NCBI GenBank assembly: GCA_964544105.1
Contig: CAZIZQ010000001.1
Coordinates: 1-62,758, forward strand
Direction of reading: 5' to 3'
DNA from: an uncultured Gammaproteobacteria bacterium
Lineage (GTDB): Bacteria; Patescibacteriota; Microgenomatia; Levybacterales; UBA12049
Length of the DNA stretch: 62,758 nucleotides
In this document: piece by piece, positions 10,674-61,132 of the stretch
How the letters are laid out: each line of letters opens with the position of its first letter
Numbering within the stretch: position 1 is the stretch's first letter
The notes under the pieces: model-generated
The model's input: only the letters and a program-made list of their open reading frames with translations
What the model was told of the DNA's origin: nothing
The model's database searches: none
Translations under genes and position numbers: made by a program

Positions 10674-11161
10674 TCTTTTTGGATGTTAATAGAAATGTTT
10701 TGGGAAAATTTTGGCATGACCATTGGCAGTAGTGGAATGTTTGGTTGAAGTTTGATGTCTACGCTTTTTATCTGGGGATTTTTTTCAATAATATTTTTTG
10801 TGTCTGCAAAAGATTTTCCGGCAATGTCTTTTGCCAGATTTTCTTTTTCCAGTTTGGGGAGCAAAAAGGCTTTTGCGAGAATGGTGCTAGTTATATCGTT
10901 ATTTTTGCCCTTTTTGGTATTTTCTAAAGTATAGGTTGTTGTATCAAGCACAAGATTAGGGTCAATATCTTTGTCGAGAAGGTTTTTTACAAATTGTTTT
11001 ATGTCATTTTCCTGGTAAGAAAGAGATTCATATGTTACTGTTCCAACAAGCGTGAATGTGTTTGCTTCCTCATCTATTTTTTTATCAAGATTACTTTGAG
11101 AAAATGATGTACCGGTAATAAAAGGCAGGATTTTACTTTCCTGATCTATTTTTTGCTGCAT
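10670..11161 (-). CDS. Hypothetical protein, possibly the C-terminal continuation of the upstream surface protein
   Basis: 163-aa ORF whose ATG overlaps the upstream stop by 16 nt around an A6 run. It has no signal peptide of its own. Confidence 0.45.
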   Translation of the reverse strand: MQQKIDQESKILPFITGTSFSQSNLDKKIDEEANTFTLVGTVTYESLSYQENDIKQFVKNLLDKDIDPNLVLDTTTYTLENTKKGKNNDITSTILAKAFLLPKLEKENLAKDIAGKSFADTKNIIEKNPQIKSVDIKLQPNIPLLPMVMPKFSQNISINIQKE

Positions 11162-12807
11162 TTCTTCTTGAGCTTTACTTCTTTTTTTGTTCCTCCGGAA
11201 AACGCGGTGTCGTTTTTTGCTTCTACTTCTGACGTATCAAAGGAGGCAACAGTAAATTTGACACCTGATGGCAAATTAGATTCTTTCCCAATATTACTGG
11301 CAACGACATTTGCTTTTTTTGTTTTGACATCGCTTAGTCCAGAAGAAGAAGCAATTACTACTGTTTCATCAAGTATAAATTTAAGACTATTTGAAGATGT
11401 AAGCGTTGTCCCTTTGGTCAGTGTTTGCTCTTTTGGTAAAACGCTAAGAATAGTTACATTTCCTTTTGCTTTTTCACCGATCTCTTTTTTTCCTGTTGCG
11501 CTTCTGGTTGTTTTTCCTTCTTTACTTATTTCTATACTTTTGGCAATTATCGTTTTTTTATCAACGTCTGTTGGGGTTTTTGTGGAAAAAGTAATATCTT
11601 GTTTTTGCTCGACAATTTTTGGTGTAACCGTTATTGATACTGCTGCTTTGACAAAAAAGATATATGAGATAAATAGAGCCAGAATAGTTAGAAGAAAAAT
11701 AGGAATTATAAGAAGAAATTTTTTCTTTTGGGGGTTATGTTGAGAAGGTTTGGGTAAAAGAGAAAAAATTTTCTTACTGTTTTTAATGACAAACGATAAT
11801 CCGGATAAAACCATTTTCCCAAATGGTTTTTTTGTTTCTAAAGGTTCAGGTTCTTTTTCCGGTATTATTTCTTCTTCCAGTTTTGTTTTGTTAATTCGTA
11901 TATCGGCATTTTTTATAAATCCAAAATTTTCTTCTTCCTCCGGCTCGCTCGCCTCGCTGGAGCTCTCGCCTCGCGGCGAAGCAGCGGGTTGGCGAAGCGG
12001 GCCGTAGCTTTTAGCGGAGGCGGCTTCTTCTTTTTGTTGTTGTTCGCCAGACAATAATTCAAATCCCATTTGCGATGCTGCGCCGGAAAGTACGGCTTTA
12101 GCATCAAAATTTTTGGGGAGAATTGTGATTTGCGGCACATGGAGAAAGGGAAGACTTTTGCTCCATGAATGACTAATAAACGACTGTGATAGTTTTTCGT
12201 TATCATGTTTGTCAGAAAGTACCAGAATCCTTGATGGGAGCACCTCATAATTGGTAAAGTGATGTAAGAGTCTATCAGTAATTTGAGCAATATTATCTTC
12301 ATTGGCTGTTCGTTTGGTTTCAATAACTCGTCCTGCCCGAAGCAAGGATACGGTAGTATGTTTTTGCCCAATCTCAATTAATATACCCGATACTGGTGCT
12401 CCTTCCTCCTCTTGTAGCAAATGGGCGATTGCCTCATGGATTACTAAAAAGCCAATTGGCTGCAATCCAAGGGCGTCGCTGGCTTTTTTTAGCAGCAATA
12501 AATACTCTTTTTTAATTTTTGTATCCTCAACCCAGGTTTCTTTTACACCAAAAATTGTTTTTTGTGTCTCGACATTTTCTGGTAATGTTTCTTCAGCCCT
12601 GCTTATGGCATTATCAAAAGATTCCAGCCATTCGTCTGGTGTTGATTCCTCAAGTGATGTGTTGAGAAATACTTCGTTTTTTCCAACTACCCGTACAATT
12701 CCACCGAGTTCTTCAAAGATTACCGCAGTTACCTTTTCGTCCCGAAGAAGAAGAGCCAGAAAATATTCCTTATTTTCTTTTTTCCCGAAAAAACTTGGCA
12801 GTTTCAT
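11146..12807 (-). CDS. Actin-like ATPase (FtsA/PilM-like) fused to a low-complexity linker, one TM helix and an extracellular beta-rich domain
   Basis: The N-terminal ~250 aa carry actin-fold-like blocks (GILIEIGQKHTTVSLL, HEAIAHLL, AVLSGAAS). One TM helix (LLIIPIFLLTILALFISYIFFV) follows. The start was chosen at ATG 12807, because the longer ORF only reads through the repeat element. Confidence 0.55.
   Translation of the reverse strand: MKLPSFFGKKENKEYFLALLLRDEKVTAVIFEELGGIVRVVGKNEVFLNTSLEESTPDEWLESFDNAISRAEETLPENVETQKTIFGVKETWVEDTKIKKEYLLLLKKASDALGLQPIGFLVIHEAIAHLLQEEEGAPVSGILIEIGQKHTTVSLLRAGRVIETKRTANEDNIAQITDRLLHHFTNYEVLPSRILVLSDKHDNEKLSQSFISHSWSKSLPFLHVPQITILPKNFDAKAVLSGAASQMGFELLSGEQQQKEEAASAKSYGPLRQPAASPRGESSSEASEPEEEENFGFIKNADIRINKTKLEEEIIPEKEPEPLETKKPFGKMVLSGLSFVIKNSKKIFSLLPKPSQHNPQKKKFLLIIPIFLLTILALFISYIFFVKAAVSITVTPKIVEQKQDITFSTKTPTDVDKKTIIAKSIEISKEGKTTRSATGKKEIGEKAKGNVTILSVLPKEQTLTKGTTLTSSNSLKFILDETVVIASSSGLSDVKTKKANVVASNIGKESNLPSGVKFTVASFDTSEVEAKNDTAFSGGTKKEVKLKKKCSKK
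11944..12003. repeat. GC-rich patch with 2-3 copies of the motif CTCGCCTCGC-N-GCGAAGC-GGG inside a CDS
   Basis: The 12-mer ctcgcctcgctg (11948-11959) and the ~22-mer at 11965-11988 match 12848-12869 inside repeat element E1. Confidence 0.6.
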
Positions 12808-12814
12808 AGTATTA

Positions 12815-12938
12815 AGCTCAAAAATCAAAGCGCAAAGTTCAAAACAACTCGCCTCGCTGCGAAGCGGGCAACGCAAAACTAAAAAGTTTTAAGATTTGAG
12901 CTCTAGTTTTGAGTTTTGACATTTGAGTTTTGAGTTTG
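12815..12938. repeat. Heptamer-built palindromic element, copy E1 (carries a GC-rich insert)
   Basis: CAAA-type heptamer arm 12815-12847, GC-rich 22-mer 12848-12869, and complementary TTTGAG-type arm 12887-12938. A 34-nt exact match to 27630-27663 lies at 12904-12937. Confidence 0.85.
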
Positions 12939-14810
12939 TGAATGATTATTATTCACGACAGCATATATTCTTCTTTGCCTGTGACCAATATTTTCTTGCT
13001 TTATAATTGTAAACTGTTTTATCTTTCCTGTAAAATCAACATGTGGCCCGCCACAGAATTCGGCCGAATACGGCCGTTCTGAGCTCGTCGAAGTACCCCC
13101 ACCAATAAAATACACTTTTACTTTCTCTTGGTATTTTTCATCAAATAGTCCTATTGCCCCAAGTTTTTTTGCATCAGCTAGATGCATTATTTCAAAATGG
13201 ACGGGAAGATTTTCGCTGATTTTTTGATTTACAATTTTTTCAACTTGTTTTATTTCTTCATCAGTAAGTTTTCGGTCAAAGTTAAAATCAAAACGTAATC
13301 TTTCTGTTGTAATATTAGATCCTGTTTGATGAACATTATTACCTAATGTATCGCGAAGTGCTTGATGAAGAATGTGTGTTGCTGTATGCCCCAAGATGGT
13401 TTTTTTCTGATGGTCAGCAAGGCCTCCGGCAAATTTTTGGGCAGCACCAAGTCTTGAAAGATCTTTGTGTTCTTCCATTTTTTTGGCAAATTCCAAGATG
13501 TTAAAGGTATAACCTAGGCTTTTTATTTGTGTTGGAGAAAGACCGTGGGTGGCATAAAGAATAAAGGCATCTTCTGGGGAAATTTCGGTTGTTCCCATAA
13601 GCTCGTCTCCTTGTTTTTTATTGGGATATTTTTTAACGATGTATTCTTTAGCCCGATTTTGGGCTTTTCTATACGTTTGTTCTTCTTCGAGAATAGTAAG
13701 TTTTATCCGTTCAAAATCAACTTTTAGTTGAGGGTCTGTTTCTTGATATTGGCTAACAATTGATTCAATAATATTGGCACTGTTTTTACCATCCAGTTTA
13801 TCCAGATTGTCGATAGATCTTCGGATAAGTCGGCGAAGAATATATCCTTGTTCGGTATTAGAGGGGGTGATATTGCCGCTAATCATAAAACAACTACCAA
13901 TATAATGGTCGGTAATAATGCGCATTTCCCGAGCATTTGATTGGTATTCTTTGCCTGTTTCTTTTTCAACTGTTTTAATTATTGGTGAACACAAATTTGT
14001 TTGGAAAACATCTTGTAGGTTTTGGGAAGCTGCTAGTAATCTTTCCAGTCCGCCCCCAAAGTCCACATTTTTTTGAGGAAGTTCTTTAAATGTGCCGTCT
14101 TTTTGTTTGACGTATTGCATAAAAACACTATTACCAATTTCCATATATCGTCCACAATCACAATTTACATGACATAATTTTCCAAATTTTGTGTCGTGCG
14201 GGGTTTCGAAATCAAAAAATACCTCGCTGTCCGGCCCTCCCGGTTCCCCCGAAGGCATGTTTTCTGGTGTGCCAGATCTTGACCACCAGTTTTTTGATGT
14301 ACCGTAATAAAAAATTCTTTTATCTGTATCGACGCCGGCATTTTCAAAAAGTCCTTTCCAAATATTTGCAGCCGTTTCGTCTTTTGGAATGTCGTTATAT
14401 CCCTGGAAAACCGTGACATATAATTTTTCAGCAGGCAACCCAAGTGATTCTGTTAGGAAAGAAAAAAACCAAGGCAGTTGTTCGTTTTTGAAATACCCGC
14501 CTTGTCCGATGCCATCAGGCGAGGCAGGATCGCCCAAAGACCAATTGCCAAGCATGCGAAAAAATGTGGTATGGCGGTTATCTCCAATTTCGTCTATATC
14601 TTGGGCCCGAAAACTGTTTTGTACGTTAACTAGTCTTTTTCCTTGTGGGTGTGGTTCTCCAAGTAAATATGGCACTAGTGGTTGCATACCGCTACTGGTA
14701 AAAAGGGTGGTTGGATCGTTCTCTGGAACAAGAGGAGCATTAGGGATTTGTTTGTGTTTTTTATCCTTGAAAAAAGATATATATAAATCAACAATATTTT
14801 TAGCTGTCAT
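12903..14810 (-). CDS. alaS: Alanine--tRNA ligase, short form without the C-Ala domain
   Basis: Class II AlaRS core (FTSSGMQP, FFRMLGNWSLGD), editing-domain HxxxH (HTATHILHQALR) and CGGPHV. The start was chosen at the ATG giving MTAKNIVDLY. The last ~12 codons are encoded by repeat E1. Confidence 0.9.
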   Translation of the reverse strand: MTAKNIVDLYISFFKDKKHKQIPNAPLVPENDPTTLFTSSGMQPLVPYLLGEPHPQGKRLVNVQNSFRAQDIDEIGDNRHTTFFRMLGNWSLGDPASPDGIGQGGYFKNEQLPWFFSFLTESLGLPAEKLYVTVFQGYNDIPKDETAANIWKGLFENAGVDTDKRIFYYGTSKNWWSRSGTPENMPSGEPGGPDSEVFFDFETPHDTKFGKLCHVNCDCGRYMEIGNSVFMQYVKQKDGTFKELPQKNVDFGGGLERLLAASQNLQDVFQTNLCSPIIKTVEKETGKEYQSNAREMRIITDHYIGSCFMISGNITPSNTEQGYILRRLIRRSIDNLDKLDGKNSANIIESIVSQYQETDPQLKVDFERIKLTILEEEQTYRKAQNRAKEYIVKKYPNKKQGDELMGTTEISPEDAFILYATHGLSPTQIKSLGYTFNILEFAKKMEEHKDLSRLGAAQKFAGGLADHQKKTILGHTATHILHQALRDTLGNNVHQTGSNITTERLRFDFNFDRKLTDEEIKQVEKIVNQKISENLPVHFEIMHLADAKKLGAIGLFDEKYQEKVKVYFIGGGTSTSSERPYSAEFCGGPHVDFTGKIKQFTIIKQENIGHRQRRIYAVVNNNHSQTQNSNVKTQN

Positions 14811-18654: not shown

Positions 18655-18748
18655 CATAAAGCTCTCATCAAGGAAACAAAAAGAGGGTAGCTTACCTGGC
18701 TACTTTTTTTGTGTTTTTATAGATTGGGTATATCTGCCAAAACTGCAA

Positions 18749-25000: not shown

Positions 25001-25794
25001 GAGTTGTAGCAGCTCAATCAATCGGTGAGCCTGGTACACAGCTTACCATGCGTGTTCGTCATTTTGGTGGTGTTGTTATGTCTGATGTTACTCAAGGTTT
25101 GCCACGTGTCGAAGAGCTTTTCGAAATGCGAACACCCAAGAATTTCTCTCCAATTGCAGAAATTGGTGGAAAAGTTACGATCGAAACATCAGATGATGGT
25201 CATGTCATTCGTGTTCGCAATACACGAATGAAGCCGGTTGAGGAGCGTGAGTATTTCGTGCCCTTAGCAGCCAACCTGTTGGTTACCGATGAGGATGAAG
25301 TTGTATCTGGTACCCAGTTTGCTCAAGGATATTTAGATCCAAAAGAAGTATTAAAGGTAAAAGGACTTATTGCAGCTCAAAGGCACATTATTGAGGAAGC
25401 ACAAAAAGTATACGAGTCTCAAGGTATCACCATTAACGATAAACATTTCGAAGTTACACTTAGAAAGATGTCCGATAAAATTATTATCGAAACTGTTGGA
25501 GATACAGCCTTTGTCCCAGGTGACTTTGTTACAAAGACCAAGTTTGAAGAAGTAAATACCGAAATGATTGCCCAGGGTGGAGAGCCGGCAACAGGACGAC
25601 AAATGGTCTTGGGCGTTACCAAAGCATCGTTATTCTCCGACTCATGGCTTTCGGCAGCATCATTTCAAGAAACAACAAAAGTACTTACCGAAGCAGCACT
25701 TGAAGGACGAGAAGATTATCTTGTTGGACTTAAGGAGAATGTTATCATCGGTCGTCTTATCCCAGTTGAAGGCGCAGCGCCGGTTGAAGTATAA
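22081..25794 (+). CDS. rpoC: DNA-directed RNA polymerase subunit beta'
   Basis: 1237 aa. Has the zinc motif CYCGKY..CDKCG and NADFDGDQMAVH. Its start overlaps the rpoB stop in an ATGA. Confidence 0.98.
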   Translation: MIEKRPKDQTIIDFKSLKILLADHKDITSWSYGEVTKPETINYRTLRPEKDGLFDERIFGPTKDWECYCGKYKRIRYKGIICDKCGVEVTLSRVRRERMGHITLACPVGHVWFFKGPSSPLALILDIPQKSLESVIYYASHLVIAIDDRKKEEAIKKFTETIEERREKLKKDIEVEQKNMEQDLDDKKKEAKDRKSTQEQKDLIVSEIELLKRQKVTALEKRFEEESSKLTELADALLRLLKSLKVGSVISEEEYFKLIEYDISIFFTMQTGAEGLHALLDKLDLSALIVNLREEAEKSSGARYLKVIKRLRLIEAMRKASISPSAMIMIALPVIPSDLRPMVQLVGGRFATSDLNDLYRRIINRNSRLKHLMQLGAPEIILRNEKRMLQEAVDSLIDASQRNQVVSAPLRSLSDMLRGKQGRFRQNLLGKRVDYSGRSVIVVGPQLKLTQCGLPKEMALEMFKPFVLREVITRGLAPNIKSAKRFIEKRPPEVFDILEEITKNHPVLLNRAPTLHKLGIQAFYPVLIEGAAIQLHPCVCAGYNADFDGDQMAVHIPLSQKAQEEAVRLMMPSHNLLKPADGSPITLPNKEMAVGIFYLTSVDEQARKEVLPSFASINEAMLAYSLEKVKLREPVNVKIEDKSEQVIETTVGRIMFNERLPKSMDYVNEAVKASGINKLIRKAIGKYTSEETTEIIDAIKNLGFIASTLSGISVSVFDNHMVPEKDALIEASEKKITAIEDEYQKGLITIDEKKRLSNDVWLKTTDHIADLTWNNLKSTNVIKTIIDSEGARAGKEQLKQLSAMRGLILDPLGKIVELPIKSNFREGLSIFEYVASARGSRKGLTDSALKTANAGYLTRRLVDVAHDVIISQEDCGATEGIVVAETDRRVAPFTNRIIGRVTAQKVVSKKTKKTILEANEEITEEKAASLVENDVLEIQVRSPLYCKLSYGICALCYGWDFATRTKVHLGVPVGVVAAQSIGEPGTQLTMRVRHFGGVVMSDVTQGLPRVEELFEMRTPKNFSPIAEIGGKVTIETSDDGHVIRVRNTRMKPVEEREYFVPLAANLLVTDEDEVVSGTQFAQGYLDPKEVLKVKGLIAAQRHIIEEAQKVYESQGITINDKHFEVTLRKMSDKIIIETVGDTAFVPGDFVTKTKFEEVNTEMIAQGGEPATGRQMVLGVTKASLFSDSWLSAASFQETTKVLTEAALEGREDYLVGLKENVIIGRLIPVEGAAPVEV

Positions 25795-25797
25795 TAT

Positions 25798-25890
25798 GCA
25801 AACTCAAAGCTCAAATGTCAAAGTTCAAAACTATAACTTAAAACTTAAAACTTTTAGTTTTGACTTTTGAGTTTTGCGTTTTGAGATTTT
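25798..25890. repeat. Heptamer-built palindromic element, copy E2
   Basis: Fills the rpoC-rpsL spacer. Register: ctcaaag ctcaaat gtcaaag ttcaaaa ctataac ttaaaac ttaaaac / ttttag ttttgac ttttgag ttttgcg ttttgag. Confidence 0.85.
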
Positions 25891-25893
25891 ATT

Positions 25894-26367
25894 ATGCCTA
25901 CATTAATGCAGCTTACAAAAAAAGGAAGAAAGAAAAAGGTAAAAAAGACACGTTCAACTGCTTTGCGGCGTTTGTACAATGCCAAAGAGCGAAAGTATAC
26001 TAACGAACTTTCACCGCAAAAACGAGGGGTAGTAACTTTGGTTAAGACCATGACGCCAAAAAAGCCAAATTCAGCTCTTAGAAAAGTGGCTCGTGTAAAA
26101 TTATCTAACAGAATGGAAGTTACAGCCTATATTCAGGGTGTTGGACATTCTCTATCCGAGCATGGTATTGTGGTTGTTAGAGGCGGACGTGTCAAAGATT
26201 TGCCAGGTGTAAAATACCATATTATCAGAGGTAAATACGATTTGTTAGGCGTTGACGGACGAAAGACATCCAGAAGTAAATATGGTACCAAGAAAGGTTT
26301 GGGTGGTGCGCCTGCTGCGCCGTCTGCGCAAGCAAAAGCGGCTCCAGCAGCGCCCGCAGCAGCATAG
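25894..26367 (+). CDS. rpsL: 30S ribosomal protein S12 with an Ala/Pro-rich C-terminal tail
   Basis: S12 core ([29 protein letters not shown]) plus a ~20-aa tail [21 protein letters not shown]. Confidence 0.95.
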
Positions 26368-26847: not shown

Positions 26848-27507
26848 TTATTCTATAGTTATTCCGAGTATTTTGTCTCCGATTTCTATTTTTCCAACAA
26901 TATCCATTCCCTTTGTTACTATTCCAAAGTTAGTATATTGGCCATTAAGCCACGGCGACTCCTTTTTAGTTATAAAAAACTGGGCGTCGTTTTGGACTTT
27001 GCCGTCTCCCCGACTGGCCATACCGACCGATCCAACAATAAAAGGATTGTTATTAAATTCAACCGGCATGTTGCTGTTGCCACCTGTTCCATTGCCAAAC
27101 GGATCTCCACCTTGGATAACCCAATCTTCTACTCGATGAAAGGTAAGGTTGTTATAAAATCCGCTTTTTGCTTTGTTGACAAAATTGTAAACGGTATTAA
27201 TGGCATCCCGGGTATAAAAAGTCATGGTGATACTGCCTTTACTGGTTTTTACTACAGCACTTTTCGATGCCATTTCTTCTAAAAAAAGTTGTCCAAGCCT
27301 GGCGCTTTCAGAAGCCGGGTTTGCTGCTACAGATGCAGGTTGGTTAGGGGGTAGTTGTTGGGGTTGCACAGGCGCTGACGTTGGAGATGGCGAAAGGGGG
27401 ATAATTGTTGGAATAACAGTTGATTTTTGATCCTGTGAGTTTGCCATAAATAATATTCCTAACATGCCAAGCGCAACAATTGTGACAAAGAAAATAACCT
27501 TGCCCAT
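26848..27507 (-). CDS. Cyclophilin-type peptidyl-prolyl isomerase, membrane-anchored or secreted
   Basis: FHRVEDWVIQGGDP..GTGG core with an N-terminal hydrophobic anchor. The start was chosen at ATG 27507, because the longer ORF reads into repeat E3. Confidence 0.85.
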   Translation of the reverse strand: MGKVIFFVTIVALGMLGILFMANSQDQKSTVIPTIIPLSPSPTSAPVQPQQLPPNQPASVAANPASESARLGQLFLEEMASKSAVVKTSKGSITMTFYTRDAINTVYNFVNKAKSGFYNNLTFHRVEDWVIQGGDPFGNGTGGNSNMPVEFNNNPFIVGSVGMASRGDGKVQNDAQFFITKKESPWLNGQYTNFGIVTKGMDIVGKIEIGDKILGITIE

Positions 27508-27551
27508 GCGGGAGATTGTAGCACAAAAATTAAAAGTATGGTATACTGAAT

Positions 27552-27665
27552 AAAGCTCAAAGTTCAAATCGCAAAGCTCAAAGTTACAACTAAAAGCTCA
27601 AAGCTTATAAGTTTTTTAGTTTTGAACTGTAGTTTTGAGTTTTGACATTTGAGTTTTGAGTTTTT
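27552..27665. repeat. Heptamer-built palindromic element, copy E3
   Basis: The CAAA-type arm 27552-27610 is complementary to the TTTGAG-type arm 27611-27665. It ends 3 nt before the fusA ATG. Confidence 0.88.
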
Positions 27666-32575: not shown

Positions 32576-33268
32576 TTACTCTTCTCGGATTTTTGGGTGA
32601 TGGATTATAGACAATGGGAATTCGATGTCGAAGGAATCGCGGGAAAGTAATTGTTTTGCTAAATCTTTCTTTTTCTCTCCACTAATAATTACAGCCACAT
32701 TTTTTGCACTTAAGACTTGCTGTGGACCTAAGGACATACCGTATTCTCGAAAATGAGAACCGCTATACGCTTGATTTTCGTGATTTTGATTAAATCCCGG
32801 AAGTAAATGTGTAACGTTCCAGCCGGTCTCCTCTTTTGTTCCTGGTATGACATTTGCATAATTTCCTTTTGGACCAATTGCTAAAATAAGTAGATCGATT
32901 TCTGCCTCAAAATCATCAATATGCGATGCTTCTGGTTTAACCACCTTAACTGCGACACCTGTTTTTTCTTGCAATGGAGCTAATAAGTGCTTTCTTGCAA
33001 ATCCTTCATAACTTGCAGGATCACTAGTTGAAACATAAACAAATAGAGGCTGCTTCTCTTCTAGCTGCTCATCCATGAGGACAAATTGAACTTTATCCCA
33101 ATTCTTAAATTCCTTCGCATGATTAATTGTCCATTCGTAAATAGGCAAAGGGGTACTTGATAATGGAGATGATACGCGGAACAAACCACTTTCTGTAGAT
33201 TTAGATTGTAAATCTTTCCAAAGATTCCCAACTGGTTCTGCAAGAGATGGAACTACTTTTTTTTTCAC
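32576..33268 (-). CDS. NagB / 6-phosphogluconolactonase-family protein (divergent)
   Basis: The length and block order resemble the sugar-phosphate isomerase/lactonase family, but the usual GxGxDGH block is degenerate (AIGPKGNYAN). Confidence 0.5.
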   Translation of the reverse strand: MKKKVVPSLAEPVGNLWKDLQSKSTESGLFRVSSPLSSTPLPIYEWTINHAKEFKNWDKVQFVLMDEQLEEKQPLFVYVSTSDPASYEGFARKHLLAPLQEKTGVAVKVVKPEASHIDDFEAEIDLLILAIGPKGNYANVIPGTKEETGWNVTHLLPGFNQNHENQAYSGSHFREYGMSLGPQQVLSAKNVAVIISGEKKKDLAKQLLSRDSFDIEFPLSIIHHPKIREE

Positions 33269-33347: not shown

Positions 33348-33863
33348 TTATTTATATAAACTGTGTTTTTTAATATACTCTTCTACTTTTGTTGGTACAA
33401 GGCCAGTTATTGGTTCACCTTTTTTTACTTTTTCTCGTATTTCGGTTGAAGAGATATTGGGAATATTATTTTTTCCATCTCGCTGGATAATAATAAGGCC
33501 AAAGGTGTGTGTTATTTCTTGCCATCCCTCCCATTTTGGAAAGTCTGCAATTTGGTCTGACCCAATAATCCAAGAAAAAGAGTGATGGGGGTGAAGTTCT
33601 TTTAGATCAATAAGTGTTTCATAGCTTATGCTTATCCCTCCTTTTATTATTTCGTAATCTGATGTTTGTATTGTTTTTGTTTCTAAAAGTACAGTCATGG
33701 CGAATCTGTCTTTGGCTGAAGTAAGGTTTTTTCCAAAGGCATGGGCAAAACAAGGCATAAGCCAGACTTGATCAAATTTCAGCTTCGAAATAACAGATTC
33801 AGCAATTTTTACATGACCATTGTGCGGCGGATCAAAGCTTCCGCCCAAAATTGCAATGCGCAT
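33348..33863 (-). CDS. nadD: Nicotinate-nucleotide adenylyltransferase
   Basis: GGSFDPPHNGH nucleotidyltransferase motif and a late ISSTEIR block. Confidence 0.88.
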   Translation of the reverse strand: MRIAILGGSFDPPHNGHVKIAESVISKLKFDQVWLMPCFAHAFGKNLTSAKDRFAMTVLLETKTIQTSDYEIIKGGISISYETLIDLKELHPHHSFSWIIGSDQIADFPKWEGWQEITHTFGLIIIQRDGKNNIPNISSTEIREKVKKGEPITGLVPTKVEEYIKKHSLYK

Positions 33864-35514: not shown

Positions 35515-35590
35515 AAGTTTCAAATAAACATGATAAACCTTTTGGAGGTATATCTGGCTACATAGCGCACGGGTTTAGGGTCTAGACGCA

Positions 35591-35616
35591 AAGCGACTGT
35601 ATGTAGTCGCTTTTTT
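35591..35616 (+). terminator. Intrinsic terminator / attenuator hairpin 11 nt upstream of the rplC ATG
   Basis: Stem aagcgac / gtcgctt with loop tgtatgta, followed by TTTTTTGGTTTTTTT. Confidence 0.6.
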
Positions 35617-35627
35617 GGTTTTTTTAT

Positions 35628-38625: not shown

Positions 38626-39256
38626 TCCACATGCATTAAGAATTGGTCCGGTATATGACTGGGTAAGCCATTGGTTTGACCAGAAGCGATATAAAGATGT
38701 GTTGCTGGAGGATTACATAATTAGAAAGAAGCTTTTAGATAGGTTAAAACCAGCAGGTGTAGCCAGGGTAGAAATAGATCGATCCATCAATAGTGTGAAG
38801 ATTACGGCATTTGTGGCAAAGCCAGGTATGGTTATTGGTCGGGCAGGGACTGGACTTGAAGAATTAAAAAAGTTTTTAACAGTAACCATACGATCTTTTG
38901 CTAAAAGCAAAAAAACTGCGCCAAAGTTTGATATTCGTATCGAACCAGTAAAAGAGCCAAATCTTGATGCATTCTTAGTTGCTAATACCGTTGCCGATCA
39001 GCTGGCAAAAAGGCTTTCATATAAACGCGTGCTTTTGCAGACAGCAGAAAAAGTAATGGGGGCAGGCGCAAAGGGAGTAAGAATACTTTTGTCTGGAAGA
39101 ATCAATGGTGCAGAAATTAGCAGACGCGAGAAGGTGCAACGTGGCACAGTACCATTATCGTCAATTAGGGAGCATATCTATTTTGCTAGCGTCCCGTCGT
39201 TAACCAAAAAAGGATATATCGGAGTAAAAGTGTGGATCAACAAACCAGAAAAATAA
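38609..39256 (+). CDS. rpsC: 30S ribosomal protein S3
   Basis: MGQKVNPHALRIG KH-domain N-terminus; 215 aa. Confidence 0.96.
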   Translation: MGQKVNPHALRIGPVYDWVSHWFDQKRYKDVLLEDYIIRKKLLDRLKPAGVARVEIDRSINSVKITAFVAKPGMVIGRAGTGLEELKKFLTVTIRSFAKSKKTAPKFDIRIEPVKEPNLDAFLVANTVADQLAKRLSYKRVLLQTAEKVMGAGAKGVRILLSGRINGAEISRREKVQRGTVPLSSIREHIYFASVPSLTKKGYIGVKVWINKPEK

Positions 39257-39356
39257 CTCAAAACTCAAATGTCAAAACTCAAAATTACAACTCAAAACGT
39301 AAAACTTTTAAGCTTTAAGCTTTAGATTTGAGCTTTGCGTTTTGCACTTTGAGATT
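39255..39356. repeat. Heptamer-built palindromic element, copy E4 (inside the S10 operon)
   Basis: Starts within the rpsC stop codon. Positions 39255-39284 are the exact reverse complement of 27634-27663. The right arm runs into the rplP start region. Confidence 0.85.
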
Positions 39357-45037: not shown

Positions 45038-45577
45038 ATGAAGATTGTACTTATTGGTATTCAAGGTTCGGGAAAATCAACGCAGGGAAATTTGCTTTCT
45101 CAAAAATTTGGCATCCCATTTTTGTCTTCTGGGGATATTTTTAGAACACTGGCAAAAGAAGATGCAGATTTAGGAAAATATATAAAAGAGGTGATGAATT
45201 CAGGTCTTTTAATTCCAGATGATAAAACAATTGATATTATAACCGAGTATTTAAACCGCCCCGAATATAAAAATGGTTATATTCTGGACGGATTCCCTAG
45301 AACCATCACTCAAGCGGAGCAATTTAAAAATGGCGTTGGATTTGCAATTTATTTAAAAGTTTCCGATCAAGAAGCGTTACGCAGAATTAGCTTAAGAAAG
45401 TCAGCTAGACAAGATGAGACAGCAGAGGCAATTAAAAAAAGAATCGAACTTTTTCATACCCATACAGAACCGTTGTTAGATTTTTATAGAAAAGATAAAA
45501 AACTAATCGAAATAGATGGGGAACAAGACATTAAAGCAATTCATCTGCAGATTCTTAAGGGATTTAAAGTAGCATGA
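45038..45577 (+). CDS. adk: Adenylate kinase (short-lid type)
   Basis: GIQGSGKSTQG P-loop and ILDGFPRT block. Confidence 0.9.
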   Translation: MKIVLIGIQGSGKSTQGNLLSQKFGIPFLSSGDIFRTLAKEDADLGKYIKEVMNSGLLIPDDKTIDIITEYLNRPEYKNGYILDGFPRTITQAEQFKNGVGFAIYLKVSDQEALRRISLRKSARQDETAEAIKKRIELFHTHTEPLLDFYRKDKKLIEIDGEQDIKAIHLQILKGFKVA

Positions 45578-46137
45578 GCCAAAAACAGATTATTGCTCTA
45601 GTTGGTATGCCAGGGTCTGGAAAAACCGCAGGGGTAAGTTATATCCAAAAAAAAGGTCTTCCGGTGCTGCGGTTTGGGGATTTAACAGAGAAGAAATTAC
45701 AAGAGCAGCATCTTGCGATTACTCCAGAAAATGAGAAGAAAGTCAGAGAAGCCTTACGAGCGGAATTTGGCATGGCTGTCTATGCCGAAAAATCAAAAGC
45801 AAAAATTGATAAGCTTTTTGCGTCACATGAGACTGTTGTAATTGATGGATTATATTCGTGGGAAGAATACTTATTTTTAAAAAAATCTTTCCCCAAATTA
45901 ATACTCATTTATATTTTTGCCCGACCAAGCGTTCGATATCAAAGGCTTGCCAAAAGAAAGATTAGACCCCTCATTGAAGAACAGGCAAAGTTGCGAGATG
46001 TTTTGGAAATAGAAAAGCTCAATAAAAGCGGCCCAATTGCCATGGCGGACTTTGTTATAGATAATTCCGAAAGAAGCAAAGAAGCATTGCACAAGCAGAT
46101 AGATGAGGTTCTTAAAAAACTCAAAGCAGAAAAATGA
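45574..46137 (+). CDS. Second P-loop nucleotide kinase-family protein (CoaE/UPF0200-like)
   Basis: GMPGSGKT Walker A, 187 aa. Its reading frame overlaps adk upstream and map downstream by 4 nt each. Confidence 0.5.
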   Translation: MSQKQIIALVGMPGSGKTAGVSYIQKKGLPVLRFGDLTEKKLQEQHLAITPENEKKVREALRAEFGMAVYAEKSKAKIDKLFASHETVVIDGLYSWEEYLFLKKSFPKLILIYIFARPSVRYQRLAKRKIRPLIEEQAKLRDVLEIEKLNKSGPIAMADFVIDNSERSKEALHKQIDEVLKKLKAEK

Positions 46138-46901
46138 TACAGAGAAAAACAGAAAAAGAAATTGCCATTATGGCAACAGGCGGCAGGATTTTGGCAGATG
46201 TTTTGTTTGAGGTTCTAAAACATGCAAAACCAGGGGTATCGGAATTGGAGCTGGATGCGTTAGCCGAAAAATTAATTAGAGAGAGAGGCGGAGAGCCTGG
46301 GTTTAAAAAAGTTCCGGGTTACAAACACACCATTTGTGTTTCTACAAATAGTGTTGTGGTGCATGGTATACCAACAGCCTATAAATTGCGTGAAGGAGAT
46401 GTGTTGGGAATTGACTGTGGCGTTTACTATGAAGGTTTTCATACCGATGCCGCACATACCGTGCGAATTCAAAACTCAAAACTCAAAACTCAAAACGATA
46501 AGATAGATAAATTTTTAGAAACGGGTAAGCATGCGCTGAAAGAGGCGATTAAACAAGTAAAACCCGGGAATAGAATCGGGCATATTTCAAAAACCATTCA
46601 AGATATTGTGGAGAAAGCGGGGTACTCGGTTGTTAGAAGTCTTATTGGTCATGGTGTTGGGCGTGAGCTTCATGAAGAGCCCGAGGTACCAGGCTTTCTC
46701 AACAGAAAAATTGAAAAAACCCCTCTCCTTGTTGAGGGTATGACAATTGCAGTTGAGGTTATTTATAACATGGGCAGGAAGGATGTTGTTTTGAATAAAG
46801 ACGATAACTGGACAATTTCTACCGCCGATGGCAGCATCTCCGGCCTTTTCGAGAGAACAGTTTGCATAACAAAAAGCGGTAATCAAATACTCACAATATA
46901 G
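46134..46901 (+). CDS. map: Type I methionine aminopeptidase
   Basis: Metal-ligand blocks (GIDCGV, GFHTDAAHT, GHGVGRELHEEP, AVEVIY..). Contains an in-frame heptamer array. Confidence 0.93.
   Translation: MIQRKTEKEIAIMATGGRILADVLFEVLKHAKPGVSELELDALAEKLIRERGGEPGFKKVPGYKHTICVSTNSVVVHGIPTAYKLREGDVLGIDCGVYYEGFHTDAAHTVRIQNSKLKTQNDKIDKFLETGKHALKEAIKQVKPGNRIGHISKTIQDIVEKAGYSVVRSLIGHGVGRELHEEPEVPGFLNRKIEKTPLLVEGMTIAVEVIYNMGRKDVVLNKDDNWTISTADGSISGLFERTVCITKSGNQILTI
46470..46497. repeat. (CAAAACT)x3 + CAAAACG tandem heptamers inside map
   Basis: Read directly from the sequence. It is translated as QNSKLKTQN. Confidence 0.95.
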
Positions 46902-48756: not shown

Positions 48757-49686
48757 ATGACAGAGCCAACATTTAAAGTCAAAGAAGAAAAGCATACCGA
48801 TACATACGGTGAGTTTGTTATAGAACCGTTGGAGCCAGGGTATGGGCATACCGTTGGGAATGCCCTCCGTCGGGTATTATTAACTTCTATTCCGGGAGCT
48901 GCAGTCGTTGCTATTAAAATTTCTGGTGTAAAACATAAATTCTCTACCCTTGCAGGATTAAAAGAAAATATTGTTGACCTACTTCTTAATATAAAAGGAA
49001 TCAATTTTCAGCTTACCGATGCCAAGCAAAGCGCGGTTGTTAAGATTTCGGAAAAAGGTCCAAAAGAAATTACTGCAGGAGATATTGTGGTAAGCGATGG
49101 TGTGGCTGTTGTTAATAAAGATCACTATATTGGTTCTTTGGCAGATAAAAAGGCAAAGTTAGATATGGAACTTACTATTGAGCGAGGCCAGGGATATATG
49201 TTGGCAGAAGAGCGAAAAGCAGAAGAATTAGGAGTTATTACAACCGATGCTATTTTTACCCCAGTGCACAGAGTAAGCTACACAGTATCGGCAACCCGTG
49301 TTGGAAGGCAAACAAATCTAGACCGAGTTGTCCTTTCTATTTGGACAAATGGTGCAATTTCTCCAAAAGATGCCTTAAAACAGGCAGCAAAGGTCCTTGC
49401 GTCGTTCTTTATGCAGGTATACGAGCCAAAGGCAGGCAGCAGTGCTGCAACAGAAGGAGTAGCAATCAGCCCATCGGTTTCAGAAGATCTTCTTAAACTT
49501 ACAATCGATGAATTAGATTTACCAACCCGTATCTATAATAGTCTTCGAAATGGCGGCATAGAAACATTGGGTCAGCTTCTTGGTACATCAAAGCGAGACC
49601 TTATGACAATGAGAAATATGGGAAATAAGTCAATAACAATTATCGAAGACAAGTTGCGAGAAAAAGGTATTTCACTAGGAATGTAG
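48757..49686 (+). CDS. rpoA: DNA-directed RNA polymerase subunit alpha
   Basis: 309 aa with GYGHTVGNALRRVLL and a C-terminal domain containing LDLPTRIYNSLRNGGIETLGQL. Confidence 0.96.
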   Translation: MTEPTFKVKEEKHTDTYGEFVIEPLEPGYGHTVGNALRRVLLTSIPGAAVVAIKISGVKHKFSTLAGLKENIVDLLLNIKGINFQLTDAKQSAVVKISEKGPKEITAGDIVVSDGVAVVNKDHYIGSLADKKAKLDMELTIERGQGYMLAEERKAEELGVITTDAIFTPVHRVSYTVSATRVGRQTNLDRVVLSIWTNGAISPKDALKQAAKVLASFFMQVYEPKAGSSAATEGVAISPSVSEDLLKLTIDELDLPTRIYNSLRNGGIETLGQLLGTSKRDLMTMRNMGNKSITIIEDKLREKGISLGM

Positions 49687-49687
49687 A

Positions 49688-49801
49688 GCAAAACTCAAAG
49701 TTCAAATGTCAAAGCTCAAAACTACAGTTCAAAACTAATAATCTTTCAAGTTTTGAGATTTTAGTTGTAGATTTGCGATTTGCGTTTTGAGATTTGAGTT
49801 T
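49688..49801. repeat. Heptamer-built palindromic element, copy E5
   Basis: Fills the rpoA-rplQ spacer. Positions 49690-49738 match the reverse complement of 27616-27664 at 46 of 49 positions. Confidence 0.88.
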
Positions 49802-49808
49802 ATTTTTT

Positions 49809-50267
49809 ATGAAAAAGCATGTCTTTGGACGAAAATTAAAACGAGATAAAAATCAGAGGACGGCTTTGTTTAAGGGTCTTATTTCGTCATTTATTTTACA
49901 TGGTAAAATGCAGACAACAGAAGCAAAGGCAAAATCAGTCAAAGGTGTAATAGATAGTTTAGTGACAAAAGTTAAAAAGAATAGTCAAGTTGTTGCAAAA
50001 AGACTTATTTCGCCATATGTTGCACATAATGCGATTTCCAAGTTTGTTGACGAAGTTGTACCGGCCTTAACAGAGCGCAAAGGGGCATATACAAAAATGG
50101 TAAAGCTTGGAAAACGACTTAAAGATGATTCTTCAATGGTACTAATTGAATGGGTGGAACAAATCTCAAATGTCAAAACTCAAAGCTCAAAACTAAAAAG
50201 CGACAAAGAAACCAAGGTTAAAAAAGTAAGTAAGCCAAAAGTTAAAAAAGAAAAGGCAGCAAAATAA
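49809..50267 (+). CDS. rplQ: 50S ribosomal protein L17 with a repeat-derived, Lys-rich C-terminal extension
   Basis: Starts MKKHVFGRKLKRDKNQRTALF. The ORF-track start at 49794 was rejected because it lies inside repeat E5. Confidence 0.93.
   Translation: MKKHVFGRKLKRDKNQRTALFKGLISSFILHGKMQTTEAKAKSVKGVIDSLVTKVKKNSQVVAKRLISPYVAHNAISKFVDEVVPALTERKGAYTKMVKLGKRLKDDSSMVLIEWVEQISNVKTQSSKLKSDKETKVKKVSKPKVKKEKAAK
50161..50200. repeat. Single arm of the heptamer element embedded in frame in rplQ
   Basis: aaatctcaaatgtcaaaactcaaagctcaaaactaaaaag. It shares the 20-mer ctcaaatgtcaaaactcaaa with the E3 and E4 arms. Confidence 0.85.
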
Positions 50268-50692
50268 TGAAAAAAACAACACAAGCAACAAAGGCAAAAG
50301 AAATTAAAAGAGCGTGGCATCTTATTGATGTAAAGGACAAGATTCTTGGACGAGCATCAACGGAAATTGCCCTTCTTATTATGGGAAAGGCAAAGCCATA
50401 TTTTATTAAAAATCTTGATTGCGGCGATTATGTGGTGGTTATCAATGCCAGAGATATAAAAGTAACCGGTAAAAAAGAAACAGATAAAATATATACTCGT
50501 TATTCAGGATATCCAGGTGGTTTAAAAAAAGAGGTATACGGTAAGCTTCATGCACGAAAACCAGAAGAAATCATTATTCATGCGGTAAAAGGCATGTTGC
50601 CACAGACCAGACTTCGCGATAGAATGCTAACACGGCTTTTTGTATATGCCGAAGATAAGCATCCATACGAAGAGAAACTCAAAACTCAATAA
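50267..50692 (+). CDS. rplM: 50S ribosomal protein L13
   Basis: WHLIDVKDKILGRASTEIA block. The last codons (KLKTQ) are aaactcaaaactcaa. Confidence 0.95.
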   Translation: MKKTTQATKAKEIKRAWHLIDVKDKILGRASTEIALLIMGKAKPYFIKNLDCGDYVVVINARDIKVTGKKETDKIYTRYSGYPGGLKKEVYGKLHARKPEEIIIHAVKGMLPQTRLRDRMLTRLFVYAEDKHPYEEKLKTQ

Positions 50693-52024: not shown

Positions 52025-52030
52025 CCCACA

Positions 52031-52057
52031 AAAACCCCCGCCAAGGCGGGGGCTTTT
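52031..52057. terminator. Bidirectional intrinsic terminator between the nuclease gene and csp
   Basis: aaaa-cccccgc-caag-gcggggg-ctttt: a GC stem flanked by an A run and a T run. Confidence 0.7.
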
Positions 52058-52075
52058 GTGTATAGCCTAATATTA

Positions 52076-52273
52076 TTAGGCAAGTTTGACGTTTTTTGCA
52101 TTTGGGCCTTTTGGTCCATCTACAACTTCAAACGTTACGGCTGCTCCAACTTGAAGTTCATCAAATGTAACACCGACTAAATCTTTGGAATGAAAGAATA
52201 GATCTTTTACTTCTCCTTCTCGAGAAATAAATCCAAATCCTCGATCTGTTTTTGTTTTAACTGTTCCGTTCAT
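52076..52273 (-). CDS. Cold-shock protein (CspA family)
   Basis: 65 aa, contains DRGFGFI. AAGGAGG SD and TGgTATAAT lie upstream on the minus strand. Confidence 0.95.
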   Translation of the reverse strand: MNGTVKTKTDRGFGFISREGEVKDLFFHSKDLVGVTFDELQVGAAVTFEVVDGPKGPNAKNVKLA

Positions 52274-56253: not shown

Positions 56254-57183
56254 ATGAAATATATTTACTCTTTACCTTTAGCTGATGATTTCTTCTTATA
56301 TCTTTCTACTAATAATTATTCTTCTAAAACTGTTTCTGACTATAAGGGTGATCTAGCGATATTTGATGGCTTTCTAGCAGATACTAATCTCGAAATGAAA
56401 ACACTAACTAAAAGAAATATTTTTGAATTTAAAGCTTATCTTTATTCAGAAGAAAGAAAAACTGCGACAACAAAAAAAGTTGCTCATAAAAAATTATCCG
56501 CTGTTACCATTAACAGACTTTTATCTGTTATTAGAGTGTATTTAAGATTTTTAACAGATCAAGATTATTTAGTCTTAATTAATGCAGATATGTTCAAAAT
56601 GGTAAAGAAGGAAAGGCATCATGCAAATGTTGCAGATTTTAAGGATTTAGTTTCCTTAATAGAATTACCAACCAAAGTTGAAAAAGATCCTTGGGTTGCC
56701 AGTAGGAATAGAGCAGTTTTGGAAATGTTATTTGCAACAGGGATGAGAATTTCCGAACTTATTAATTTAAACAAAAGAGATCTAAATGATGAAGGAAAAC
56801 TTTTTATAACTGGCAAAGGGAGAAAAGAGCGTTTTGTTTATTTAACGGATCGAGCAAAATCTTTTATAGAACAATACTTAAAATGTAGGACTGATGAGGA
56901 AGCACCATTGTTTATTTCCAAGAAACGTTCTGACAGAATAACTCCTCGATATGTTCAAGAAAGAATTCACAAATATTGCGAGATTCTCAAAATAGGTATT
57001 CGTACAACCCCACATTCTTTTCGCCACGGCTTTGCAACCTACCTTGCAGAAAATGGCGCATCGCCTGCCGCTATTCAAGTACTGCTAGGACATGAGTCTC
57101 TTAATACCACAACAAGGTACATCAATGTTTCGGACCGTTTTGCCCAAGAAACTCATAAAAAATTCCATCCTTTGGCGATCTAG
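56254..57183 (+). CDS. Tyrosine recombinase / integrase (XerC/D-like)
   Basis: HSFRHGFATYLAENG and LLGHESLNTTTRY catalytic blocks, plus an N-terminal SAM-like domain. Confidence 0.9.
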   Translation: MKYIYSLPLADDFFLYLSTNNYSSKTVSDYKGDLAIFDGFLADTNLEMKTLTKRNIFEFKAYLYSEERKTATTKKVAHKKLSAVTINRLLSVIRVYLRFLTDQDYLVLINADMFKMVKKERHHANVADFKDLVSLIELPTKVEKDPWVASRNRAVLEMLFATGMRISELINLNKRDLNDEGKLFITGKGRKERFVYLTDRAKSFIEQYLKCRTDEEAPLFISKKRSDRITPRYVQERIHKYCEILKIGIRTTPHSFRHGFATYLAENGASPAAIQVLLGHESLNTTTRYINVSDRFAQETHKKFHPLAI

Positions 57184-60675: not shown

Positions 60676-61132
60676 GTTATACAACAGCGCCCTCAAATTT
60701 CTTTCTTTTCGTTCCCGCAGTGAAAAAGAGATTAGGGAATACCTTAAGAAAAAAAAAGTAGATCCTCAAGTCACAGAAAAAATTATTACCAAACTTAAAG
60801 AGCAAAAATTTCTCAATGACTTTGAATTTGCAAAACAGTGGGTAGAAAGTCGAATGCGGTTTAGACCACGGAGCCAAAAAATGCTTACATTTGAACTAAA
60901 ACAAAAAGGCATCTCGCAAGATATTAGCGATAGCGTAATTCAGAATTCAGAATTCAGAATTCAGAATGATTTAGAACAAGCCAAAAAACTCGTAGAAAAA
61001 AAGATTGAGAAGTACAAAGGTTTATCAAGGCAGGAAATTTTTCAAAAACTGGGGGGATTTTTAGCCCGCCGCGGCTTTGATTACGACACTATAAAAGCAT
61101 CCATTGACGACATATTGAAAAAAGAGGTATAA
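60659..61132 (+). CDS. recX: RecX regulatory protein
   Basis: 157 aa with helical repeats, overlapping the recA end. Contains an in-frame (ATTCAGA)x4 array. Confidence 0.85.
60938..60965. repeat. (ATTCAGA)x4 tandem heptamers inside recX
   Basis: Read directly from the sequence. It is translated as IQNSEFRIQ. Confidence 0.95.

Follow-up and report, generated by a model that had tools for sequence, protein, structure and literature searches.

The window analysed here, by which we mean the whole stretch of 62,758 nucleotides of contig CAZIZQ010000001.1 (assembly GCA_964544105.1, from an uncultured bacterium placed in the Levybacterales of the Patescibacteriota), contains five long palindromes built from tandem heptamers, of which the one at positions 27552-27665, next to fusA, was the subject of a preliminary description. 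It was found that the five belong to a dispersed family of repeats with a conserved arm architecture, which is gained and lost at orthologous gene junctions, varies in copy number by slippage of a 7-nt unit, and has no bias of orientation. The reading that we favour, with about an even chance of being right, is that of a selfish repeat family similar to repetitive extragenic palindromic (REP) sequences and Rickettsia palindromic elements (RPE), grown by heptamer slippage, copied between loci, and co-transcribed as an imperfect hairpin; the way in which copies are made and every effect at the level of RNA are what we infer from the sequences. Tolerated selfish DNA accounts for the evidence better than a dedicated terminator or translational gate would.

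Five Heptamer Palindromes in the Window

The palindromes, designated E1 to E5, are 95-125 nt each and have stems of 25-30% GC. They are located as follows, with no strand assigned to any of them:

27552-27665: E3, the reported element, with a CAAA-type arm at 27552-27605 and a TTTG-type arm at 27613-27664 (Tandem Repeats Finder, TRF, and sequence); between a divergent cyclophilin gene (minus strand, ATG at 27507) and fusA (ATG at 27669)
12815-12938: E1, between alaS (minus strand) and the gene at 11146-12807 (minus strand)
25798-25890: E2, filling the rpoC/rpsL spacer (rpoC stop at 25792-25794, rpsL ATG at 25894)
39255-39356: E4, filling the rpsC/rplP spacer, with the S3 stop codon as the first triplet of the element
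49688-49801: E5, filling the rpoA/rplQ spacer (rpoA stop at 49684-49686, rplQ ATG at 49809)

The preliminary description had presented E3 as a palindrome of 7-nt CAAA and TTTG units and had placed four further copies in the window. TRF and the folding of E3 as a single long hairpin agree with the former, and all four copies were found at the positions given for them. The sequence matches that it listed also hold: 12904-12937 is identical to 27630-27663 over 34 nt, and 49690-49738 agrees with the reverse complement of 27616-27664 at 46 of 49 positions. A 30-nt reverse-complement match is likewise real, with coordinates that had been off by one (39255-39284 corresponds to 27633-27662). The distances between element end and ATG are 3, 3, 7, and 7 nt for rpsL, fusA, rplQ, and the 11146-12807 gene, as had been reported, and the upstream stops are as close to the elements as the downstream ATGs are, that of rpoC lying 3 nt before E2 and that of rpoA 1 nt before E5. 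A TATAAT box (25790-25795) is immediately upstream of E2, and direct reading places a TGgTATACT box (27539-27547) just upstream of E3. An independent Logan contig (L118) has the identical set of rpoC end, S12 gene, and element that is seen at E2. The 553-aa protein of the 11146-12807 gene (minus strand; beginning MKLPSFF, hereafter the MKLP gene) had no Pfam or PDB sequence match, which leaves the earlier label "actin-like" unverified.

It had also been proposed that transcripts of either strand would form hairpins, and all five copies were found to fold better than shuffled sequence on both strands. The plus strand of E3 reached -42.4 kcal/mol (z = -7.5) as one long hairpin, with 0 of 200 shuffles equally stable, and the minus strand -27.8 (z = -4.3); the z values of E1, E2, E4, and E5 were -2.5 to -5.1.

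Arm Architecture and Relatedness of the Copies

The ten arms of E1 to E5 align without gaps to the pattern AAnCT-(CAAAnnT)x4-ACAnnT-(C/T)AAAnnT, and TRF gave a period of 7 in all of them. A core of 4-5 nt is conserved in the heptamer, positions 5-6 being variable, and CTACA is present only in the mid-arm kink. When a hidden Markov model (HMM) of the arm was run on the window, it recovered the ten arms and two copies inside genes (rplQ, 50162-50196; map, 46469-46500), and no others. The arm 20-mer CTCAAATGTCAAARYTCAAA had 15 matches in the window at 3 or fewer mismatches relative to 0.08 expected, and therefore the heptamer signal is not attributable to chance; two phased heptamers gave 23 matches relative to 2.1 expected.

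Identical arm stretches of 30-34 nt occur at three unlinked loci. Arms within a genome are more alike than arms of different genomes (p = 1.7e-6), and in the same genome an arm resembles its partner in the element no more closely than it resembles the arms of other elements, which argues for copying or conversion between loci. Comparison of in-register heptamers at the three variable positions showed the arms to be complementary in 54% of cases, as opposed to 46% after shuffling, a significant but small difference. The stability of the stem comes mostly from the CAAA/TTTG cores. A conserved TGT/NCG internal loop, hinted at by the window copies, was not sustained across 55 elements.

Gain, Loss, and Slippage in Levybacteria

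Eight ribosomal-protein loci of Levybacteria were compared with the window. Of the SecY homologues that are 73-93% identical, the named ones are mostly labelled Levybacteria (Microgenomates, candidate phyla radiation (CPR)). In four of these relatives, the spacer between the S3 and L16 genes is only 1-3 nt (TAAtATG), with a GGAGG Shine-Dalgarno (SD) sequence within the 3' end of the S3 gene. In the window this junction is filled by an element of ~100 nt; relative L126 has another CAAA-type palindrome there and relative L123 (5318-5386) a 69-nt palindrome of AGCGNNT heptamers, and the old SD is decayed in all three. A tree of six concatenated proteins did not unite the window, L126, and L123 (15% bootstrap); because the occupied genomes are not a clade, the junction must have been hit more than once or often cleared. 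The comparison of orthologous spacers gave a different result at rpoA/rplQ, where every relative has an unrelated 60-73-nt hairpin followed by a T-run, in the place taken by E5 in the window.

The heptamer unit of L123 is not confined to that junction, as TAGCGNN heptamers form a 96-nt palindrome abutting the infA ATG in relative L125 (13202-13297). TAGCGNN/AGCGNNT is a second family of heptamer palindromes in related Levybacteria.

In nine Levybacteria, the array in a loop of methionine aminopeptidase (MetAP) is made of four copies of TCAAAAC, of TCAAAAG, or of CTCAAAT, of about five mixed units, or of one or two units, or else it is absent. This variation of unit type and copy number (0 to ~5 units) between relatives, of the sort known for heptanucleotide repeats, indicates slippage in place. 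A perfect AATTCAG x4.4 array (60937-60967), which is translated, lies in the open reading frame (ORF) directly after recA, identified as recX by synteny with the relatives, and it shows the same 7-nt slippage habit with an unrelated unit.

Each element might on these grounds have a purely local origin, slippage and inverted duplication by template switching having built it within its own spacer and the likeness among elements being convergent. The slippage in MetAP, the heptamer arrays of other units, and the ragged outer ends without target-site duplications (see below) are consistent with this, as is the status of heptanucleotide repeats as the commonest long simple repeats in many prokaryotes, as PMC4679880 relays it from Mrazek 2007. 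However, slippage gives homogeneous arrays, and not a fixed heterogeneous order with ACANNT in ten arms and in other phyla; in addition, there is the 34-nt identity between unlinked loci, and the two arms of an element resemble each other no better than they resemble other arms of the same genome. We consider a local origin highly improbable.

The ribosomal-protein cluster has been invaded by more than palindromes: AbiEii toxin-type or Bro-N genes are inserted in it in relatives L126 (509-1365), L123 (13302-14163), L128 (8821-9677), and L122 (7677-8268), the insertion sites being between S10 and L3 or between map and infA.

Half Copies Translated in Genes and the Start of L16

The A-rich orientation of the arm is free of stops in all frames, whereas the T-rich orientation has TGA in all three. 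For this reason arms can be translated in alanyl-tRNA synthetase (AlaRS), L17, MetAP, and L13, and ORFs contain the A-rich half alone. The AlaRS reading frame extends for 12 codons into an arm of E1 (12903-12940), such that the last 12 residues of the protein are encoded by the element. The other copies within genes of the window are:

50160-50199, plus strand: arm-like half copy in the rplQ coding sequence, A-rich only, encoding ISNVKTQSSKLK within the C-terminal extension of L17 (HMM E = 8e-8)
46469-46496, plus strand: pure TCAAAAC x4 array in map, encoding the MetAP loop RIQNSKLKTQND
50675-50692, plus strand: two heptamers at the end of rplM, providing the last codons (KLKTQ*) and the stop

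The L13 tails of relatives L125 and L126 contain 4-5 units. Half copies are translated in the L4, L13, L24, and MetAP genes of relatives, again as the A-rich arm only, and the N-terminal extensions of L4 hold a whole arm including the kink. Among solitary arrays, 59 of 114 are inside ORFs in the sense orientation.

An effect on a start codon is seen beside E4, where rplP has no ATG: the window reads ACT-ATA-GTA-CCA, and the relatives TAA-t-ATG-TTA-GTA-CCA. With this ATG lost, the only canonical start for L16 is a TTG at 39342, within the T-rich arm of E4. L16 is thus probably started from this TTG in the element arm, or else from a non-canonical ATT or ATA.

Distribution Beyond the Window

The occurrence of further copies and of a consensus outside the window, which the idea of a dispersed family implies, was borne out. 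Among the matches listed, the exact 20-mer was present in more than 117 stretches of a species-representative genome collection, of which most belong to Patescibacteria of nearly every class, and it was also found on long contigs of Ignavibacteria, Nitrospirae, Chloroflexi, Omnitrophota, Stahlbacteria, and Marinimicrobia, in deltaproteobacteria (one contig of 2.97 Mb), and in a Microcoleus isolate; some of the taxonomic labels, notably "binchicken Gammaproteobacteria", are possibly unreliable. Many carriers have the identical type of palindrome with the same ACANNT kink. A simple palindrome detector counted 61 in 806 kb of the survey loci and 5 in the window (8 per 100 kb), as opposed to 0 in 379 kb of unrelated control contigs of higher GC. 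With S7 as the query, a metagenome scan yielded relatives of 51-62% identity only and was used solely as a negative control.

Rfam 15 gave no match in the window at the gathering score, and none at E <= 1 across 49600-50300. In the searchable literature we found no description of the literal sequences or of heptamer or palindrome repeats in CPR genomes, the sole analogue being a paper on TAACTGA repeats (discussed below). The palindrome family therefore appears to be undescribed, in agreement with what had been supposed.

Carriage of the family by phages was considered and rejected. The arm 20-mer had no match in IMG/VR phage contigs except for one chance coding match, and a looser pattern led to direct (CAAAGYT)n leaders and to one palindrome-like arrangement (L219), none of which is of the window family. 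The direct arrays, some of which reach 10 or more units, are carried by phage contigs with a GC content of 47-60% and include the following:

L216, 8112-8164: (CAAAGYT)n array
L220, 9711-9763: (CAAAGYT)n array
L210, 1199-1251: (CAAAGYT)n array
L209, 344-368: (CAAAGYT)n array

Most of these arrays sit between a conserved ATCATAAAG box, which is -10-like, and an SD-less ATG, and they resemble a repeat-built 5' leader. The 19-mer ATAAAGCTCAAAGTTCAAA is common to the left end of E3 and to the phage leaders.

Tests of a Transcript-Level Role

The preliminary description had the elements serving as terminators, processing sites, or translational gates at core operon boundaries. These proposals did not fare well, and a role at the transcript level is weakly supported, each test of it having been null or weak. 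Of 42 elements between co-directional genes, 20 folded better as the sense strand and 20 as the antisense strand, and therefore there is no G-U wobble signature of selection on RNA. The conserved arm was 5' relative to the genes in 13 cases and 3' in 16. Junctions with elements were 75% co-directional, 17% convergent, and 8% divergent, relative to 72, 17, and 11% in the background (p = 0.8), and the same junction lacks the element in most close relatives. The median co-directional spacer is 23 nt without an element, and 33 nt are left after subtraction of the element where one is present. The flush geometry is therefore that of a ~100-nt insert in normally short spacers, for which no special explanation is needed.

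The elements might act in both directions as intrinsic terminators or attenuators, or as RNase III processing sites, and so determine the boundaries or the stoichiometry of transcripts. This idea draws on the long hairpins of both strands, on the U-rich runs that follow E3 and E5 (and, by direct reading, only these), on the location of E5 at a junction where relatives have a hairpin and then TTTT, and on the A-rich arrays that are often found beside GC-rich terminator hairpins (the centre of E1, L010, L078, and L086). However, the AT-rich stems contain many mismatches, convergent junctions are not enriched (17% either way), there is no wobble bias of the sense strand, and E4 separates S3 from L16 within the S10 operon, a place at which termination would do harm. 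Moreover, canonical GC-rich terminator-like hairpins exist elsewhere in this genome, at 52025-52075 (bidirectional, at a convergent junction) and, in attenuator-like form, at ~18680-18720 upstream of rpoB and ~35590-35627 upstream of rplC. A function in termination or processing is, in our judgement, very unlikely.

Nested in the centre of E1 (12848-12866, minus strand) is a GC-rich hairpin followed by a T-run, the top terminator-like match of the region, and this hairpin is probably the alaS terminator. GC hairpins are likewise nested in or abutting arrays in L010, L047, L078, L080, and L086.

A promoter was also considered. TTGACA-17-TATTAT, in the T-rich arm that adjoins fusA, is the best sigma-70-like match of the 12-31 kb region; the -35 is perfect, but the -10 overlaps the fusA ATG, and the same arm is antisense in E2 and E1, and so this was rejected as a general role.

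The suggestion that the hairpin buries an SD had little to stand on. An SD-like motif was found in just 17 of the 73 window genes, and TATAAT or TACAAT occurs 6-9 nt before many starts (3663, 29940, 46941, 53873, and 57432; on the minus strand 32576-33268, 33348-33863, and 27507), such that the organism seems to use many leaderless transcripts; a buried SD consequently carries little weight.

A hairpin with the upstream stop at one foot of the stem and the downstream start at the other could nevertheless couple or gate translation if the ribosome terminating upstream were to melt the base of the stem and free the SD-less start of the next cistron, which would then be translated only in dependence on the upstream one. 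In ~23 of 41 co-directional cases the stop is within ~9 nt of the first paired base, and in 26 of 40 the ATG is 20 nt or less from the last paired base. L16, beside E4, has neither an ATG nor the old SD and yet is needed, SD use in the window genome is low, and a palindrome is indifferent to orientation, which fits the absence of polarity. On the other hand, the geometry is as expected from insertion into ordinary short spacers, co-directional junctions are not enriched over background, the same junction is without an element in most relatives, and pairing at the variable positions has been selected for only slightly. E3, furthermore, is at a divergent junction, with nothing translated upstream. 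We therefore regard coupling as an improbable reason for the presence of these elements.

The Arrays as Possible Protein-Binding Sites

A different proposal is that the arrays are binding sites for a protein that reads 7-nt units, such as a cold-shock protein (Csp) with its oligonucleotide-binding (OB) fold on the U-rich RNA arm beside the start codon, or a ribbon-helix-helix (RHH) repressor of the omega type on double-stranded DNA heptads. The periodicity of 7 nt is strict, with a core of 4-5 nt conserved and positions 5-6 free to vary, which is consistent with this, as are the recurrence of the same unit across phyla and the phage contigs of 47-58% GC in which (CAAAGYT)n arrays separate a -10-like box from an ATG. 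The weak complementarity of the arms suggests that the arrays matter more than the stem, a csp gene is present in the window (52076-52273), and omega of pSM19035 is a heptad-binding protein. Bacillus subtilis CspB binds heptamer repeats, one protein per heptamer, in the account reviewed in PMC4679880. Opposed to this are the universality and weak sequence specificity of Csp proteins, the sporadic presence at orthologous junctions, and the location of half of the solitary arrays inside coding sequence. The second unit type, TAGCGNN, builds the same kind of palindrome, which points to an effect of unit length more than of one recognition sequence. Binding-site arrays thus seem quite unlikely.

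We also hold it to be very doubtful that the heptad arrays form a conserved cis element, indifferent to orientation, whose reader is a universal 7-nt-binding protein such as one with the cold-shock OB fold. Whichever strand is transcribed, the U-rich array would then adjoin the start and the A-rich array the preceding stop, and binding versus hairpin formation would set SD-less translation. If this were true, a portable, slippage-tunable post-transcriptional switch would be common to CPR, several other phyla, and some phages. The phage leaders, the shared 19-mer, and the csp gene keep a protein-binding reading alive at low probability.

Evaluation of the Selfish-Repeat Reading

In the reading that we favour, the elements are non-coding palindromic repeats that are indifferent to orientation. 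Replication slippage of the 7-nt unit would cause arrays to grow, shrink, and homogenise in place, and gene conversion or non-DDE transposition would spread a specific arm between spacers, consisting of four heptamers, the ACANNT hexamer, and then one or two heptamers. Only copies harmless to genes would survive, which would leave full palindromes exactly between a stop and the next start and, inside genes, the A-rich orientation only, open in three frames and giving a peptide rich in K, T, Q, N, and S. Co-transcription with the neighbouring genes would turn each element, read from either strand, into a long A/U-rich mRNA hairpin with imperfect pairing. Translational coupling, partial attenuation, and RNase III cleavage are probably side effects of such a hairpin and not the reason for its existence.

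Several observations weigh against this reading. Evaluation of target-site duplications at 60 elements showed equal flanking 2-mers in 7 cases relative to 5.0 expected, and equal 3-mers or 4-mers in 0. The elements have no fixed ends, the outermost paired bases being CAA, CTC, AAT, AAA, TCA, and others; the terminus consensus is no more than AA[AT]CT-CAAA, and the inner architecture is what is conserved. No consistent pairing of an A-array with a T-array 0.3-5 kb apart, as in an autonomous partner, was found in ~1 Mb of loci, and as neither such a partner nor a transposase was seen, mobility is something that we infer. Identical 30-35-mers in deeply divergent phyla are hard to square with neutral DNA. 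Either horizontal transfer would have to be frequent, against which the absence of the arm 20-mer from IMG/VR phage contigs (one chance coding match aside) speaks, or a sequence-specific partner would have to exist, which points to a function. The alaS/MKLP junction is occupied not only in the window but also in a CPR3 genome (L053, MKLP gene at 286-1488) with an AlaRS that is merely 37% identical. E5 may have taken over a real role at rpoA/rplQ, to judge from the hairpin of the relatives. Finally, the survey loci were all seeded with one 20-mer and are therefore a biased sample, and the gene calls in the survey are crude ORF calls.

A link to a tyrosine recombinase was judged too weak, as homologues of the window integrase were found at 5 of 117 loci, with one beside an element. 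No Y1 transposase of the REP-associated (RAYT) type was present among the 30 window proteins scanned (62.7 kb of genome covered).

Other Features of the Window

The cyclophilin-type isomerase gene (26848-27507, minus strand) lies between rpsG and fusA and splits the str operon, with TGcTACAAT 7 nt before its ATG. The region of ~52.3-58.9 kb, which is low in GC (29-34%) and contains genes for a Fic protein and a tyrosine recombinase (56254-57183) as well as several ORFs without a Pfam match, may represent an island that has been integrated where the ribosomal-protein genes adjoin recA. Two adjacent kinase-like genes at 45038-46137, between secY and map, are putatively adk and an AAA_18 paralogue, to judge by synteny with the relatives, and this arrangement is kept in all Levybacteria loci examined.

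Discussion

The genomes of CPR/Patescibacteria are very small and densely packed, and they are considered poor in repetitive or selfish DNA. Here an abundant repeat family has entered even the ribosomal-protein operons S10, str, and alpha, has altered the ends and loops of proteins, and is able to abolish a start codon. For uncultured lineages it provides a marker with which genome dynamics, and possibly horizontal exchange, can be followed. It supplies essential proteins with new disordered peptide segments, and it is a practical nuisance for assembly and for the calling of start codons. It also adds to the few reports of heptamer repeats at SD-less starts, and if the arrays were read by a protein, they would constitute a new and widespread regulatory signal. 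The sharing of arms across phyla reflects either frequent horizontal spread or an arm constrained by a sequence-specific partner.

Among known systems, the preliminary description had likened the elements to REP, Correia, and RPE sequences. The comparison with REP and RPE stands and that with Correia does not, as a Correia model, or one of miniature inverted-repeat transposable elements (MITEs), fails on target-site duplications and defined ends. Correia elements are RNase III substrates with outward promoter-like hexamers. They resemble the window family as intergenic inverted repeats of ~100-150 nt that are co-transcribed and form hairpins, and the T-rich arm of the window carries TTGACA; however, they have defined termini and a TA target duplication, and the window family has neither.

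By analogy, the REP sequences with their bacterial interspersed mosaic elements (BIMEs), and the RPEs, appear to be better counterparts. REP/BIME sequences (as REPINs, mobilised by RAYT) are extragenic, lack target-site duplications, are co-transcribed as stem-loops within operons, are homogenised within a genome, and are variably present at orthologous spacers, all of which is similar here. They differ in being 20-40 nt and GC-rich with a conserved GTAG/CTAC end, whereas the window family is 95-125 nt, AT-rich, heptad-periodic, and ragged. RPEs are palindromes of ~100-150 nt dispersed in a small genome, between genes and in frame inside essential genes, to which they add a peptide, and we know of no transposase or target duplication for them. 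Half copies of the window family are similarly translated in frame within genes, as the A-rich arm only. The likeness to RPEs is one of description and not of sequence, since the arms here are tandem heptamers and occur in many phyla, not in one genus.

With regard to the heptad itself, omega of pSM19035 binds direct and inverted 7-bp heptads in operator or centromere arrays. The window family has a heptad arrangement, and to belong with such arrays it would also have to be bound by a cognate RHH protein.

TAACTGA heptamers have been reported in Beggiatoaceae, cyanobacteria, and Bacteroidetes, with S1, Csp, and CsrA proposed as readers (MacGregor 2015, PMC4679880). These repeats, the long simple sequence repeats (LSSRs) of Mrazek, and the short tandemly repeated repetitive (STRR) sequences of cyanobacteria are like the window family in being intergenic tandem 7-nt units located a few nt from start codons, often in place of an SD. 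The TAACTGA repeats are also found within ribosomal-protein operons, including upstream of fusA, and have a patchy, cross-phylum distribution for which the transfer mechanism is not known; the phage (CAAAGYT)n leaders are reminiscent of them. The TAACTGA repeats are direct arrays, with only one inverted set reported, whereas the intergenic copies of the window family are paired inverted arrays of a different unit, in a fixed heterogeneous order with a hexamer kink.

The family is thus best regarded as a variant, built from heptads, of the palindromic repeats found between bacterial genes, in which simple-repeat slippage is combined with a REP/RPE-like dispersal.

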